A DNA stretch of 64,000 nt, from the NCBI GenBank assembly GCA_951406725.2, contig OX597823.1:46686001-46750000 (forward strand), in the 5' to 3' direction. Of the stretch, positions 13,057-43,574 are shown in pieces (the stretch's first letter is position 1; each line of letters opens with the position of its first letter). The DNA comes from Octopus vulgaris (Eukaryota). The notes beneath the pieces are model-generated. The model was not told the origin of the DNA. It saw only the letters and a program-made list of their open reading frames with translations, and did not search any database. The translations under genes and the position numbers were made by a program.

Positions 13057-13094
13057 TCTTTAACGTTTCGAGCCTACGCTCTTCAACAGAAAGA
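13057..13094 (-). ncRNA. Hammerhead-like motif with variant CUGUUGA core (family HB)
   Basis: UCUUU-CUGUUGA-A-GAGC-GUAG-GCUC-GAAA-CG-U-U-AAAGA. Confidence 0.6.
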
Positions 13095-16999: not shown

Positions 17000-17195
17000 C
17001 TACCAGTCGCCTTGATTTTGACACTAACTCTGAAAGTTTTTTATTCTCTCTCTTTATTTCCACGTGTTCCTCTCTGTTGAAGAGCGTAGGCTCGAAACGT
17101 AAAAGACTTTCACACCTTCCCAAACGTCAAATTAATACACCTGCTTGTTGTTTATATACCTGTCTTCGTCTTTTGTTTTTCTGTAAATTTCAACT
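17000..17195 (+). mobile_element. Solo PLE terminus, family HB, with hammerhead-like motif at about 17069-17106
   Basis: CTGTTGAAGAGCGTAGGCTCGAAACGTAAAAGA; similar to the reverse complement of 12960-13140. Confidence 0.7.
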
Positions 17196-17271
17196 ATATG
17201 TGTGTGTGTTTATAACCTAGATAACTTAGATATGCTTCAACCAAAGATTGGTCCAGGCTATATACACATAT

Positions 17272-17635
17272 GCGCAGGAGTGGCTTGCTTACCAGCCACA
17301 TGGTTCCGGGTTCAATCCCACTGCATGGCACCTTGGGTCTCTTCTGCTGTAGCCTCGGGCTGACCAAAGACTTATGAGTGATTTGGTAAACAGACACTGA
17401 ATGAAGCCCATCCTATATATATGTTTGTGTGTCTGTTTGATCCCCCCCACTATCACTTGACAACTGATGCTGATGTGCTTACGTCCCCGTAACTTAGCGG
17501 TTCAGCGAAAGAGACCGATAGAATAAGTACTAGGCTTACAAAGAATGAGTCCTGGGGTCGATTTGTTCGACTAAAGGCGGTACTCCAGCATGGCCACAGT
17601 CAAATGACTGCAACAAATAAAAGAATATAAAAGAA
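17272..17635 (+). mobile_element. SINE family A
   Basis: Head, central block and tail present. Confidence 0.88.
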
Positions 17636-17665
17636 TACACACACACACACACACAAGCACACACA

Positions 17666-17768
<103 letters not shown>

Positions 17769-18580
17769 CACACATATATATATGTCTGTGTAGCGATACT
17801 ATAAATAAATCAGTATGTCGAACGTATTTATACGCTTGATATGGCTTCATAAATGATAGACTTCAAGTGTTCATAGAACTGGAAGATGTGTTTTTATTCA
17901 CAAATTGAATGAGAAAATTTTCTCCAAACAGCTTTCCATGTTGGCGTTTATACGTGCTTGATATAAAGAAATGTACACGGCCTACTTTTTTTTTTTTTTT
18001 TTTCCAGTCGTCGCTGCTAAGAATGTTTACAATAAAAAAAATTTTAGCTTGGCAAAACTCAGTGCATATCACCAAATATGCATTATGTTCTGTACATATA
18101 GAAATGGGTGTTCCAACTCTATTATAAACTATTGAATCTTAGTGTGTCACTGCCAAAACACGGTCACGCTAAAACACGTGTCGGGATAGACTGATGACGT
18201 CATTCAGAGCCCAGCTTGTAATACATACTTCGTATGAAGTCTATAAGGAGAAAATTTCCTCCAAGACAATAAGGCAGCAGTTGAACAATGTGTCACCAAA
18301 AAGGAAAATTATAATTGTCATAAAATATGTCAGAGGGTGTTAGAATACCTACACTGCTAGAAATAAGAGCTAAAATGCTCTGATGCTGCAGGCAACGCAC
18401 ATAATTGTATGCATATATACTGATAGCAACCGCAAACGGCAGAAATCGGCTGTTTTGATATCCCTATACAGTCGATGGTTTCGCCATGAGTACGTATGTC
18501 TACTCCATAAAAATCTATTGGTGATTTAGCGAATCACTAATGTGTATATTAATAATTAAATTAGGCAGCAGTTGAGCAAT

Positions 18581-18713
18581 TGCTTACGAACTACATGGTT
18601 CCGGGTTCAGTTCCACTGCGTGGCACCTTGGGCAAGTGTCTTCTACTATAGTCTCGGGCCGACCAAAGCCTTGTGAGTGGATTTGGTAGCCGGAAACTGA
18701 AAGAAGCCCGTCG

Positions 18714-18752
<39 letters not shown>

Positions 18753-18984
18753 TTGTGTGTGTGTGCGTGTGTGTATGTGTTTGTGTGTCTATGTTTGTCC
18801 CCACAACATCGCTTGACACCCGATGCTGGTGTGTTTACGTCCCCGTAACTTAGTGTTTCGGCAAAAGTGACCGATAGATTAAGTACTAAGTTTACAAAGA
18901 ATAAGTCGTGGGGTCGAATTTCTCAACTAAATGTGGTGCTCCAGCATGGCCACAATCAAATGACTGAAACAAGTAAAAGAGTAA
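18581..18984 (+). mobile_element. SINE family A inserted in the tandem array
   Basis: Slightly 5'-truncated head, full tail. Confidence 0.9.
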
Positions 18985-19254
18985 ATATGACAGAGGTTGT
19001 TAGAACACGTACAGTGCTAGAAATAAGAGCTAAAGTGCTCTGATGCAGCAGTCAACGCACGTAATTGTATACATACACCCTTTCACATTTTTAGTGACAA
19101 TCATAATTTTCCGTTTTGATAATACATTGCTCAGCTTCTGCCTAATTTAATTAATAGTATACACATTAGCGATTCGCTAAATATTCCATTGATTTTTATG
19201 GAGTAGACATATGTACTCTTGTCGATTTATCCGGAATTTGGCGAGTGGTGCCGA

Positions 19255-19305
19255 CCCTACTGAAGAAGCTTCGATCTTAAAGCCGAAACCGTCGACGGTT
19301 CAGGG
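19255..19305 (+). ncRNA. Type I hammerhead ribozyme motif
   Basis: CCCUA-CUGAAGA-A-GCUU-(8 nt)-AAGC-C-GAAA-CCGUCGACGG-U-U-CAGGG; the sister half-copy (18461-18485, -) has GUA-UAGGG, giving a perfect helix I. Confidence 0.75.
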
Positions 19306-19654
19306 ATATCACAATGGCCGATTTCGGCCGTTGACGGTCGCTGTCAGTATGTAAGTATACAATTATGTGCGTTGAATGCAGCATCAAAAAGACAAACAAA
19401 AAAAGAAACTTAAACAAAACAAAATATATGCCCAAAGAGAGCTAATGCATGCACTCAGCGGGCCGGCAAAAGGACTGCGGTCGTGCAAACCATACAACGA
19501 GAGTATTTGAGGAAATCATATGCATCCAATTTTCTGCTGTGCAAGTGGTACACTGTATTGAAAAAAGTTACATACATACATTCATACGTATCTGTATATA
19601 TTTATACATATATACACACACACACAATAACAATAATAATTACATATAACTAAA

Positions 19655-19745
19655 CTAGCCGTGACCCGTTAGGTCACCAACAATTCAAGGTACCCGAAGA
19701 AACCGCGTCTCTCTCGGGATTCCGTGGTCCGATTTACATCAATAT
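19655..19745 (-). mobile_element. Helitron-like 3' terminus
   Basis: Minus strand GTGACC-TAACG-GGTCAC hairpin followed by GG-CTAG then T; 5' end not identified. Confidence 0.5.
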
Positions 19746-19758
19746 GTATTTACTCTAA

Positions 19759-20010
19759 GGTGGCGAGCTGGCAGAATCGTTAGCAGTATTTTGTCCGTCT
19801 CTACGTTTTGATGTATTGATGAAGTAAGTACCAGTTGAGCACTGGGATTGATAAAATAAGTACCAGCTCAGCACTGGGGTCGATGAAATAAGTCCTAGTT
19901 GAGCACGGTGATCAATGAAATAAGTACCAGTTGAGGACTGGGGTCGATTTTATCGACTAACCTCCTGCACCTAAATTTCGGATCTTATACCTGTAGTTAA
20001 AAAGGATGAT
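19759..20010 (+). mobile_element. SINE family B with an internal 31-nt unit repeated four times, 12-bp TSD
   Basis: GATGAAATAAGTACCAGTTGAGCACTGGGGT-like unit x4; TATTTACTCTAA at 19747-19758 and 20012-20023. Confidence 0.85.
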
Positions 20011-20024
20011 ATATTTACTCTAAC

Positions 20025-23000
20025 AGGTATATTCATAGTAGTTGGGCTTTTTTTCCAATATTTATTTGAATATATTTTGAACAATTTAACGGCTAACGCT
20101 AATTAATAATGCATTTTCTCTGCAGCATAAACTGTGTAAAATATTTGAATTTGTGAACGAATTTGATTGAGATATTATTTATAAAGAGTTCTTTCTGAAA
20201 TTTTCTTACAGATCATTGTCGCTCCATTGGTTTTGTGGTTTGTTAAAACTTGTAATTTCTTTTATAAAGCATCCGCTTTTTCTATTTTAACTCGTAGTTT
20301 AATTTTGTCCATAAGTTTAATAAAGATTCACACTCGAAACAATCCCAACTATTATGCCTGTTGAATTTTGTATTTTCTTTTAATCTCTTTTCTTTTAATA
20401 TTTTCTCACTCGTCTTTCCCATAATTTCAGAATTTGTGGAAACAAATCATTAAAGGTAGCGATTATAATGTGATAGGTTTTTACGAATGAAATGATTATT
20501 ATCTGACTCTTAATTTTATATGTACTAATTATCAGAGAGAAATCATTTCCTCAGCAAATTAACTTCAAATATCTCATGAGAACCTTTATGACCTAATTTA
20601 ATTGTCATCGCTGTGATCCATAGCAGTATAGAAAAGAGCAAGGAATGTTGTGTAGCGAAGCGTGGAGTCTCAGCACTTGTTTTAACAGGAGACGGAAATT
20701 GTTCTAAACTAGATTAACCAGTAATACAAAGATGCTATCATTGAGGAATATATATATATTCATATAGGCTATTTCTTTTCCTGATTAATCTAATTATTTC
20801 ATTTCCTCTTGACAGTTCAGTTAACAAGACTTTAAACATTCATTTAAGAGCGTAATGATTGTGGTGAGTTTGGTTGTCCATAACATTATTCATGCAATTT
20901 GTCGATAAATCTTATTTAGAGGGTTACTTGGCTATACTGGTCTCTGTACTAATAATACAGAAAAGCTCTATTCTACTCGTTTTATATGAGAAACAATGAA
21001 CAATATCATACTCAAGAATGTAACACAATCAAGTATATGAAGGAAGTAGTTTTGTCGTCCGAAAAAGACTGAAAGATGAAGCCCCTAATGAGAAGTTTCA
21101 ATCTCAGAAATAAATTTATTAATTATGGAAACATTCTAAAGTAGAAAACTAAATACCGAAACTGACTAAATAGTGAAAGGCCATTGACTATAGTATTATT
21201 TTTGTGACTACAGTACTGATTTATTTTTTTTATTTTACTATATGTTAATTCAGTGGTTCATAACCATTTTTTATCTATGGATTCCTTTGTTTACTGTTTT
21301 ATTCTGGCGGACCCCTATAACCATTTGAAGCTTTAAAATTATTTTCAAGAAACTTCTTTCAAAATTTCTACTTTATTTGTCAAGCATTATATTTGTGTAG
21401 GATGAACTATGTAAAACATCAGATAAAGAACATTTACTGTTTCTTGGAAAAATACAGCCAAAGACCCTTAAAATACTGCTGGGGATCCTCAATTTACTAT
21501 CTTTCTTGCATGTTCTCCCAAACATTTTATATAGACCCCTAGGGGTCAAACCTCTGCGTTTGACTAATGTTTTAAAAAGATGAAATCAACTCAATTACAT
21601 TAGTGAAAGCAGGTTGACAGAAATTTTTTCTAAATATCTTTATCGTGACATGGCAAAATCGATTATACTTTACTCGAAAAACTTGGAGAAATATAGTGTT
21701 TTAAATAAGTACTTGTATATTACTGGTATATATTTAGCTATTCAAGTGGTGCAGATAATAACTGAATGTATAATACAGAAACACCAAATGCATCTTGTCT
21801 GGTTCCTGACCATCTTTAATAATAGTCCCGCATGCAAGATGGATGAATCTGCAGATGTTATTTTCAGAGGAAAGCTACAAAAAGAAGTCGAGGTAGCGTG
21901 TTATTATTATCTCCACTATGGAATATGATTACTGATGTAGTCCAGCAAATCGGTTCATTAAAAAATATCGAGTATTTTACATGTCTGATTACAATTATGA
22001 TATTATCCAAAACTTTGTCTGCATTCCTGTTAGAGCTGATTACAGAAGCACCAAACATAATTACACTTTTTTTTTATTTTAGAAAAAATAATTTGATTGT
22101 TATTTTCATTTATTTTTAGAGCAAGAAAACAAATTATCTAAATCATAAATGAGTATTTTTAAAATGAAACTAGTATTTAATTAAAGATTCGACAAAAACG
22201 TTCAGTTTTATCTGTCATGTTGTAATTAGAATAAGTGAAAGAGATACATGTATTGTACTAGGAGATTAAACCAGTCGTAGTCAATGAGATACTGAACAGT
22301 AGATTCAACTTTGTTAGGATATTACGCCTCCTAATTCTTCAAATAATTCTTAATTACATCAACAGTGACGGGTAACTAAGCAAAGAAAAGCTTGTCTGTG
22401 ACACACTTTCCTTTCTCGTCTGGAACACCTTTACTCCCCTTTCATTACCAATGCCGTTGAAAAGCTCCTAAACTACCCTGGCTTCTGTTTTCCATGTCTT
22501 AAGAACACTACTTAAGCAGCCTTTACAACTGTATAAATATGCTTCATTATTGGAAATAAAATAATAAGTTTGTAAGGGGATGAGTTTGGGTATATAATTT
22601 ACTTTTCAGTATAATTCAATGAAGCATCCTAACAGCTGTGAGTTTATGTTTGTAGTCTTTCAACCGGGAAGTCATAAAATTTATTTCCTGTTTGTAAGAC
22701 AAGGTAATGAACTGCTTTATGCGATAAATACGAGAAAGAAAATGAACCAAGTGTTACGGGGCCAAATCTAGTCGATATTATGGTTATTGTTTTTTGAAGG
22801 GTTATAACTGCAAGACCAAATCTATTCGTGCACCAGTTATTACGAATTACAGATTTAAACGAAAAAGCTTAAAAGGAATTGTAAATTATATGTGACGACG
22901 ATGCAACGTGAAGGAAGCGGTTCCAAAGGGAAAATAAATTCAAGTTTTACAATTTGAGTAACCACAATGGGGTGCTAAGTTCTATACCAATCGGCCTCCA

Positions 23001-28930: not shown

Positions 28931-30457
28931 CAATTATAATTTTTCTTTCAAAAGTATCAAATTTTCTTTCTTTGTTGATATTATATTACTTCCAGCAAAT
29001 ACGCAGAATTTCTATTTAAAAATCCACGTCTTTAAATCCTTCGTAGTCCGCAAAACGCATAATACTTAAATATTTAATCGTTTTAAATTGATTCATAAAT
29101 TTATCCTGTTGTATATCTTTGTGCCTTTGTTATTCAGAATGTACCGAAATTACGGCATCTTATTACAAGTTTCTTTTATAATTAAATCAAAATAATATAA
29201 AACTGCAGCAACGTGCCTATTTTACTGTAATATTTCAGGAAGTGGCGAATCAGTATTCTAACGTGGCTTTCACATTAAATTAAACTCATATGGAGCCAAC
29301 GAAAGAAGGTTATATACTGTCTCACTACCTCATAGAAACAACAGCCAATTCTTTGTCAAGTCACGCATACTATATTAGATACACTGGACAAATTCACTCT
29401 TGATGCCATGCAGAATTAAAGAAAGCAAATATTTACATCACTCTTGATGCCCCGCTCAATAATTTGCTTAACTCTGGCTAACATGGAGTTAAACAACATT
29501 AACTTTATATGGTTGTGTAGATATATCTTGAAGCTGATGAATAATTTTACTATAGGCGTACTATTGGTGTGTTTAGAGATTTATTTCTCGTCTCAGAACA
29601 CCCAACAGAGTTTTGTTAGATTTAACTCTGGACTGTTTAAGGAATCAACCATTAATTCTATATAAATATATGCGTATTCGGACAGAGGAAAAATTTCTGT
29701 CAGTATAGGATAATAAACCTTTCTATATAAAATATACGTCCATCAAGTACACAAGAAACTGTTGCTGCTGTTGTTGTCGTCAGCATCGAGGTTGTTGTTG
29801 TTGATTTTTTTGTTGTTGTCTCGCCTCAGGTCAGCCTTGATAGAGCAAAAATTACAGTAATTTATCCTAATATTCATTAAGTTTGCCTTTCCGATATATA
29901 AGAAATATTATCCACTAATCCGCAATTATTATAAATCAGATTAATAAGAAAATGCCTGTTAGATATGAAAGAGAAAAGAAACAAGACGTTTCTTTTCAAA
30001 CTATCATTTCCATTGGAATATTTAGGTCCGAGAAATGTTTGATTGAGAGAGATCAGAGAGATAAAACGTTATTAATTCTAAGTTCTTTTTTTTTTCTGCC
30101 TGAAGTGAGTAATAAGTCCATAAACGTAAAGAATTAAGAGAGTGTAATTATTGAGTAGCATTGTGCGGTGGATAGCAGCACTGTATGGTGAGAAAGATTC
30201 ATAGAATATTTGTATATAGAACATTATACGGGGCGATATAATTATTATATGTATAACATGTGTAATGTGGCCGCTAGATATAGCAGACTGAGTAGATGTT
30301 TGATAAGGATTTCTATTATTTACTAGGTTGATGGTTGATGCATGTATGATACTGCATACATATATATATGTGTGTTTGCGTACATGCATGTATGCCAATA
30401 CAAATGTATGTGTATATATATATATGTATACGTATATATGTATGTATACATATATAC

Positions 30458-31753
30458 CACTCAAATGTGGAAGTGATATATCTCGACTTTGCAAAGGCCT
30501 TTGATAAAGTCGATCATGGAATGATATGTCACAAACTGCGTGATCTCAACATAGTTGGAAAACTGGGAGAATGGCTTCATGACTTTCTGAAGGATAGAAG
30601 TCAGGTGGTAGTAGCCAATGGGGCCACCTCCATTAACACACAAATAGTGAGCGGTGTTCCGCAGGGCACTGTTCTGGGACCACTACTGTTCATAATGGCC
30701 CTCTCAGACATGCCCTCAGCCACGCAGAGAGCCACGATCACAAGTTATGCAGATGATACAAAAGTCTCACAGGCAATACAGAACCCTGAGGACACTAAAC
30801 ACCTGCAATGTGAGCTGGACGAAATATACAAGTGGGCTGAAAAGAATAGCATGCAGTTCAATGCTGGAAAGTTTCAAGCTTTATACTATCAGCATGCAAA
30901 ACTGAATGCAATACCCAATGAATACACTGGACCCGGAGGGATTGCAATCCCAGAGGCACAATCAGTGCGTGACCTTGGTATTCACATGAGTGATGACGCG
31001 ACCTTTCATGTACATGTTGCTAAACTGTCAATGAAATGTAGACGGCTGGCTGGATGGATTCTTAGAACCTTTAGAACAAGAGAACAAGAAACCATGATGG
31101 TCTTCTGGAAGACACTTGTCCTAAGCCACTTTGACTATTGCTCTCAGCTATGGTCACCATCCAGTGTCAAGTTGATCACAGAACTTGAGGCGATCCAACG
31201 AAGCTACACAAAGAAGATAGCCTCTATGCAGAATGTAAGCTACTGGGAAAGACTCAAGAGATTAAAATTATATTCCCTGGAGCGTAGGCGGGAAAGATAT
31301 GCCATAATATACATCTGGAAGATCCTGGAGGGAAGTGTCCTGAACTTTGGCATCGAGAGTTACGCAAATGCCAGAACTGGGCGCCACTGCGTGGTGCCTA
31401 GGACTCCAAACCTGCCATCAAGATGTAGGACAAGATTCTGTGATAGCCTGGGCTTCCGAGGCCCACAGCTCTTCAATATCCTCCCGAAGAACCTGAGAGA
31501 CCTGCATGGGGTGGATACAGATGTCTTTAAAATGAAGCTGGATCTCTTCCTGTCAGGTGTCCCAGATGAACCAACTTCACGGCAGGAGGGGCAGATGAGG
31601 GCAGCTGCATCGAACTCTCTCATGCACCAAATAGCAGTTGCTAGAAAGCCTCCATGAAGTGAAACCAAGTAGCAACACCAAATGGCGGTGCCCCAGCATG
31701 GCCACAGCTCATAAGCTGAAACTAGAATCAATCAATCAATCAATCAATCAATC
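30458..31753 (+). mobile_element. 5'-truncated CR1/L2-group LINE with uninterrupted RT-to-C-terminus frame, 3' UTR and (TCAA)n tail
   Basis: YLDFAKAFDKVDH, SGVPQGTVLGPLLF, YADD, RDLG, LYSLERRRERY; stop at 31657; the ORF-track N-terminus (30368-30457) is microsatellite. Confidence 0.95.
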
Positions 31754-42815: not shown

Positions 42816-43574
42816 AGTGACGGGAGGGAGGGAGGGAGGGAGGGAGGGAGGGAGGAGGAGGAGGAGGAAGAGTAAGAGAAAAGGAGAGAAAAAAGGGAAG
42901 GGTTGTAGAGAAAACCAGAAAGAATGAAGAATGAGGGAGAGAGAGAGGGACAGTAAGGTTAGAAGAAAGGAAACCAGAAAGAATGAAGAATGAGAGAGGG
43001 AGGGAGACAGAAAGGTTAAGAGTGCGCATTATCATTATTAAGATAAAACTTACTTGGAAATGGATGCGTGGCGTTCCATCATGTTATAACAAAATAATAA
43101 ATAAAACATATGCATATATACATACATATATGTACGTACCTACATTTCTATGTATATATACATGCATATATGGGTACAGGGCACAAAAAAAAACGTGGAA
43201 CACAATGAGAAACGAAAACAAAAACAAAACCAAGGAAACGAACATTTTTTAAACAACGAAAAAAAACAGAGTAAAAAGCATACAACACAAGGAAAATTCC
43301 TCTGGGACAAAGGGTGCTAATCAGCACCAGTGTTGCTAGAAATAAGAGGCAAAACAACTCAATTACCACACCAGAACTATCTTAGCGACTGACAAGGGGG
43401 ACAAGCTTCCTACGGTCGCAGATATAGTCAGATCATCGATGATTTCGTCTTTTGATGCTTAACGCATTTTAATGCTCATCGGTGAGTATTATCGAGCCAA
43501 GGGTTAAACTCAGCTCACCTTGTCAGATTTCCGTTGAAATCAAGCGCTGATTTCATAAACGGTAAAAGTGAAAA

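Follow-up and report, generated by a model that had tools for sequence, protein, structure and literature searches.

The window (the whole stretch of 64,000 nucleotides analyzed) contains a decayed array in which a 352-nt hammerhead repeat is present about 2.2 times, and we consider it likely, with a probability of roughly two in three, that the array arose as a single insertion, reverse-transcribed by the enzyme of a Penelope-like element (PLE) that mobilized the repeat as a non-autonomous retrozyme.

Layout of the insertion and its hammerhead

The first-pass annotation had described tandem and inverted copies of a structured monomer of about 350 nt, and the array proved real. The direct repeat (18323-18415 versus 18983-19075, 89% identity) was accompanied by three inverted ones (18481-18580 versus 19126-19225, 87%; 18381-18483 versus 19284-19386, 83%; 18268-18348 versus 19067-19147, 79%). 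Repeat comparison set the length of the unit at 352 nt, the 291-nt period of the deleted copy A plus a 61-nt gap. The unit is non-coding, with a GC content of 36-40% and a longest stop-free stretch of 58 codons. The description "structured" found little support, as the monomer folded barely better than shuffled sequences (z between -1.3 and -1.7 in the plus arm, -0.5 in the minus-strand copy).

The minus strand carries about 1.4 units, close to the 1.5 originally estimated, split by a SINE-like repeat and shortened by a 61-nt deletion. The plus strand carries 0.9 of a unit, an arm rather than the whole inverted unit reported before, and the two meet head to head at 19077 (Table 1). The boundaries of the element are near 18270 and at 19386-19388. 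When flipped, arm R reads directly into copy B, giving a continuous sequence of about 775 nt (about 2.2 units); the first 37 nt of copy B are the last 37 nt of arm R, inverted. Copy B starts 50 nt 3' of the cut site. The insert covers two cut sites and neither of its ends coincides with one: one end, that of arm R, lies 86 nt 3' of the cut site and the other 197 nt, 111 nt apart in unit coordinates.

Table 1. Positions of the insertion, its hammerhead and its flanks in the window
Feature	Position	Strand	Remark
Candidate target-site duplication, left	18263..18269	+	7-bp direct repeat (AAGACAA)
Copy A	18270..18580	-	one unit plus some 20 nt of the following one; 61-nt deletion near 18487
SINE-like dispersed repeat	18580..18985	+	central (TA)n(TG)n; later insertion, outside the element
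Copy B	18983..19077	-	95 nt of the unit that precedes copy A; 88% identical to 18323-18417
41-nt block	19000..19040 (twin 18340-18380)	-	AGAGC/GCUCU hairpin
37-nt segment	19041..19077	-	recurs inverted at 19350-19386; head-to-head junction 19075-19078
Inverted arm R	19076..19386	+	311 nt, one unit minus the 41-nt block
Canonical type I hammerhead	19244..19316	+	core and three helices
Hammerhead stem I	19255-19259/19301-19305	+	distal extension 19244-19250/19310-19316, register read by eye from the commoner family letters
Hammerhead core	19260-19266	+	CTGAAGA
Hammerhead helix II	19267-19271/19280-19284	+	
Hammerhead GAAA	19285-19288	+	
Hammerhead helix III	19288-19291/19296-19299	+	four pairs, UCGA loop
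Predicted cut site	after 19300	+	GTT 19298-19300
Candidate target-site duplication, right	19389..19395	+	7-bp direct repeat (AAGACAA)

The candidate 7-bp duplication frames the whole, and the region can therefore be read as a single insertion comprising about 2.2 units. The duplication was sought post hoc: a 7-mer match within 3 positions of both ends was found for 144 of 20000 random position pairs and, with the right flank fixed, at 473 of 63700 left positions, i.e., a chance of about 0.7% per such search. The copies show similar pairwise divergence (9-19%) and have in common letters that differ from the commoner ones of the family (19042, 19132, 19156, 19213 and 19321), which together suggest that they were made from one template. 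The repeat that splits the minus-strand units, which we take to be a SINE, has many copies in the window (66-90% identical), and about 33 nt of the unit are gone at its site (those at 18322-18290 of copy A, which have no counterpart between 18983 and 18580). The type of this SINE is the basis for a presumed cephalopod origin. At 19818-19945 (+), a 32-nt sequence is repeated four times head to tail within a second SINE-like repeat that begins near 19758.

A descriptor fitted to the window copy of the hammerhead, and no looser than that copy allows, found only this site in the window and none in 100 shuffles of the window or 5000 shuffles of 18272-19390. The type I hammerhead, initially called full, has its core and three helices but is mismatched in stem I (19259/19301) and at the base of helix II (19267/19284), and a search of Rfam gave no gathering-level match anywhere in the window; even at E ≤ 10, none of its hammerhead families matched 17000-21000 or 19220-19340. 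The 14-nt palindrome proposed as helix III is exact here (19287-19300), but that of the family has 12 nt because the outer pair needs T19300, read mostly as A in the related copies. The hairpin TTAGCG-ATT-CGCTAA (19166..19180, +), also pointed out at first reading, is found in both copies, that of copy A including a wobble. Its companion GGCCG-ATTT-CGGCC is specific to the window copy: copy A lacks it, and the letters most common in the family at 19315, 19316 and 19321 do not form it. It is accidental, needing positions whose family letters form stem I.

Copy A had been said to lack about 60 nt, and the measured loss of 61 nt took the 5' arm of stem I, CUGAAGA and helix II; GAAAC...GUA-UAGGG is retained, with the cut-site equivalent at 18467/18466. 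No two consecutive intact ribozymes are present at the locus, one being damaged on the inverted arm and the other lacking these 61 nt. Instead of a working array, the locus is one old damaged insertion, and the damage to the surviving hammerhead makes it probably inert.

Related copies in three organisms

Contigs of four runs out of 24, three of DNA (X1, X6 and X12, from organisms A, B and E) and one guessed to be of RNA, were aligned at 80% likeness to 18986-19540, a span that takes in nearly all of copy B, arm R and the right flank. Related copies of the 352-nt unit were present in all three organisms. Among the 40 of 124 differences listed, eight fell within 19245-19316 and were read by eye. 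Five (19247, 19267, 19301, 19315 and 19316) restore or strengthen Watson-Crick pairs, the one at 19313 keeps its pair as a wobble, 19300 T>A turns the cut triplet GUU into GUA, and the one at 19274 sits in loop II, where the family letter would allow 19272-19274 to pair with 19251-19253. The core is untouched by all eight. Every one of them was backed by 5 to 17 contigs per DNA run, and the depth in X1, X6 and X12 was 824/1068, 607/785 and 252/443 for 19267 A>G and 629/873, 461/857 and 280/416 for 19300 T>A. The mended stems, the GUA and the untouched core together indicate that the family hammerhead is clean and of canonical type I, its long stem I being interrupted by an internal loop. The guessed RNA run gave contigs over the high-depth part of the span and none over 19214-19308, a distribution with no bearing on expression.

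The same contigs showed how the unit continues elsewhere. Among the 24 of 559 loose ends listed, those before 18994 (26, 39 and 24 contigs per run) read on into the unit, and those behind 19075 (44, 54 and 44 contigs) likewise enter it; among the 15 of 107 joints listed, 18992>19090, 19004>19090 and 19070>19353 continue in one sense. According to these ends and joints, other copies pass from the 3' part of arm R through copy B into the 5' part of arm R in a single sense; among the contigs listed, none covers a full period at another locus. Taken with copy A of the window, the same-sense junctions close the circle from hammerhead to hammerhead without a stop-free stretch longer than 58 codons. 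Read in this way, the unit is a circularly continuous monomer and not the end of a coding element. That continuity answers the objection, raised with the original proposal, that the unit might occur only as the terminus of a coding PLE; with the type I hammerhead, the non-coding 352-nt unit and the family in three organisms, it upholds the retrozyme-like reading.

The head-to-head junction was bridged by contigs of X1, X6 and X12 with 0, 10 and 15 other letters, respectively. Bridging in three DNA runs indicates that the inversion is old and probably older than the split of those organisms. An assembly artefact as its source was ruled out by the same contigs (X1 may be the window's own sample).

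The 41-nt block is the only part of the unit absent from arm R. In the three DNA runs, the summed depth over 19005-19042 exceeded that of the hammerhead part about 100-fold (depth is no copy number), which shows that the block is common to far more sequence than the hammerhead part. The loose ends next to the block resemble the 352-nt unit in diverged form; it is also possible that a different abundant repeat shares the block. A 21-nt match to it at 43334-43354 (+, E 0.054) starts just past the end of another repeat. This match and weak ones at about 62220 and about 8120 were equaled in score by 7, 2 and 70 of 200 shuffles, respectively, and were rejected as relatives of the unit for lack of a clear extension beyond shuffles. 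Pattern scans gave no matches in metagenome contigs and 0 and 1 in viral contigs, the lone viral match (L001) being 19 nt without further similarity and taken as chance.

The mobilizing enzyme and alternative explanations

Under the proposed mechanism, a multimeric transcript would be cut by its hammerheads into 352-nt monomers able to circularize, and the reverse transcriptase of a PLE, priming at a nick made by an endonuclease, would then copy a circle or uncut multimer. The position of the insert ends off the cut sites points to such a template. Priming by both target strands would give the arm of about 500 nt and the inverted 311-nt arm between the 7-bp duplications; insertion of the SINE, losses of 33 and 61 nt and point mutations in the surviving hammerhead would have come afterwards. 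In the published retrozyme model, multimers self-cleave, a host ligase circularizes the monomers and a borrowed reverse transcriptase (RT) writes tandem copies (PMC7229834). Uncut RNA was the main substrate of an Anolis PLE in vitro, and the PLE protein extends both target strands (PMC11167929), a possible route to two divergent arms.

PLEs usually insert as a partial tandem next to an inverted, 5'-truncated copy (10.1101/2021.04.23.441226; PMC2377424), a layout that the locus has in common with them, along with a type I hammerhead (10.1101/2021.04.23.441226; PMC11167929). The distance of 86 nt between the cut site and one end is matched in the Anolis PLE by 85-92 nt (RT start 111-118 nt into the ORF, cut at 26; PMC11167929); this match, like the lack of exactly the 41-nt block in arm R, is a single coincidence noticed post hoc. 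The ends of PLEs differ by a tail of 30-40 nt (10.1101/2021.04.23.441226; PMC11167929), and the 37-nt overlap was considered as such a tail and rejected, its geometry being different from the published one. The element also differs from PLEs in that no RT or GIY-YIG reading frame was found within it, in its canonical hammerhead with helix III and a long stem I, and in its ends lying 111 nt apart. No autonomous PLE with matching ends was found in the window, whose PLE-like fragment and minimal hammerheads have no sequence in common with the unit. The tandem-plus-inverted footprint modestly supports PLE mobilization as first suggested: the anatomy fits, but twin priming by LINEs leaves a similar trace.

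Such twin priming produces a 5' inversion, a short breakpoint overlap and a target-site duplication. The same hammerhead repeat could have been inserted by a LINE enzyme in this way, which we regard as unlikely. The geometry of the 37-nt overlap suits twin priming better than a PLE tail, and a LINE-like fragment with an RT is present in the window. LINEs as well as PLEs are named among the candidate mobilizers (PMC7229834). What speaks for a PLE is that the 3' end of the main arm (18270) has neither a poly(A) nor a simple-repeat tail, that seamless tandem and inverted copies are routine for PLEs (10.1101/2021.04.23.441226), and that retrozymes co-occur with, and resemble, the pseudo-LTRs (pLTRs) of PLEs (10.64898/2026.07.22.740005).

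A small chance likewise falls to pLTR debris of a coding PLE, in which case the copies would be 5'-truncated tandem and inverted remains giving rise to no independent small RNA. From a coding PLE one would expect a reading frame after the hammerhead and truncated copies joined at arbitrary points. Instead, the sequence behind the hammerhead returns to the start of the unit without a reading frame, and the identical junction recurs in copy A and, among the loose ends listed, in 24-39 contigs per run, where truncation points should vary. The hammerheads in metazoan pLTRs are minimal, without helix III, whereas that of the 352-nt unit is canonical (PMC4209133; PMC7761336; PMC6155905). These findings have to be set against the habit of PLEs to insert as truncated tandem or inverted copies with hammerheads in their pLTRs (10.1101/2021.04.23.441226; PMC4209133), and against the very high depth on the 41-nt block, which points to a much larger family behind it, not seen whole.

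Local duplication and inversion of a single dispersed monomer by DNA repair or replication slippage, which would make the array uninformative about retrotransposition, is improbable: the 37-nt inverted repeat bounding the plus arm is of a kind that template switching can leave, and the locus has seen other rearrangements (the SINE and two losses), but the copies are about equally diverged, a 7-bp direct repeat stands at both outer ends, and duplication of a linear monomer would not recreate the family's own junction.

Comparison with known elements and other features of the window

Sequence features support the assignment of the locus to the animal non-LTR retrozymes, as a decayed member. Like them, it has a hammerhead of canonical type I within a unit of 150-450 bp that is non-coding and has a GC content below 45%, head-to-tail continuity and PLE-like motifs in the same genome, and the candidate 7-bp repeat would correspond to their flanking duplication of more than 4 bp (PMC7229834; 10.64898/2026.07.22.740005); no LTR pair was evident at the locus in the repeat comparison. 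The closest example by description is the 350-390-bp repeats of the mussel Mytilus galloprovincialis (PMC7229834). Differences are the inverted head, which the accessible text of the two sources does not describe (PMC7229834; 10.64898/2026.07.22.740005), and the four-pair helix III with a palindromic tetraloop. An active retrozyme locus is one with two consecutive complete hammerheads (10.64898/2026.07.22.740005); the present locus, having none such, is filed as a decayed copy. It counts against the proposed explanation that, of nine predicted retrozyme dimers assayed elsewhere, only one was cleaved (10.64898/2026.07.22.740005).

The hammerhead satellites of newt, schistosome and cave cricket also carry type I motifs whose helix III loop is palindromic, so that tandem copies can pair through it (PMC6155905; PMC4209133). 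Unlike in those satellites, helix III is long enough here for a predicted monomer hairpin (-2.9 kcal/mol), so dependence on dimers is not expected, and no long array was seen.

Corals, a mussel, amphibians and numerous other animals are known to have non-LTR retrozymes, and given that range a further family was to be expected. A literature search found no cephalopod retrozyme (the supplements of PMC7229834 and PMC4209133 may list some), and the words ribozyme, hammerhead and retrozyme are absent from the main text, as far as accessible, of a 2026 Octopus repeat annotation (PMC13282606). A link of retrozymes to PLEs has been published before, on the grounds that the two co-occur and that retrozymes resemble pLTRs (10.64898/2026.07.22.740005), and the anatomy of the insertion, with its seamless multimer, inverted head and flanking duplication, bears on which enzyme moves retrozymes. 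A bolder reading, which we hold to be speculative and rather doubtful, is that the unit represents an old branch of a large cephalopod retrozyme family whose living subfamilies make 350-nt circles, and that the strongly over-represented 41-nt block, which begins 86 nt 3' of the cut site, is the recognition and priming signal of a PLE. If the block were such a signal, the insertion ends would name a Penelope-like enzyme as the mobilizer and provide direct footprint evidence for the link.

Apart from the insertion, the window contains a broken reading frame at 14640-13990 (-) with a Cys-rich stretch and a motif that we presume to be GIY-YIG-like, without a Pfam match at E 0.1. A minimal hammerhead at 13089 lies about 900 nt beyond this frame, and the two are probably the 3' end of a PLE. 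That hammerhead is one of five minimal hammerhead-like motifs of two kinds, at 13089-13062 (-), 7163-7137 (-), 17074 (+), 35881 (+) and 50986 (+), three of which deviate from the core CUGANGA by having CUGUUGA or CUGUCGA. They are of the kind described for the pLTRs of PLEs and unrelated in sequence to the 352-nt unit. A stop-free frame of 435 codons at 30350-31657 (+) encodes a reverse transcriptase domain (PF00078, E 1.3e-18) and is a 5'-truncated LINE-like element.
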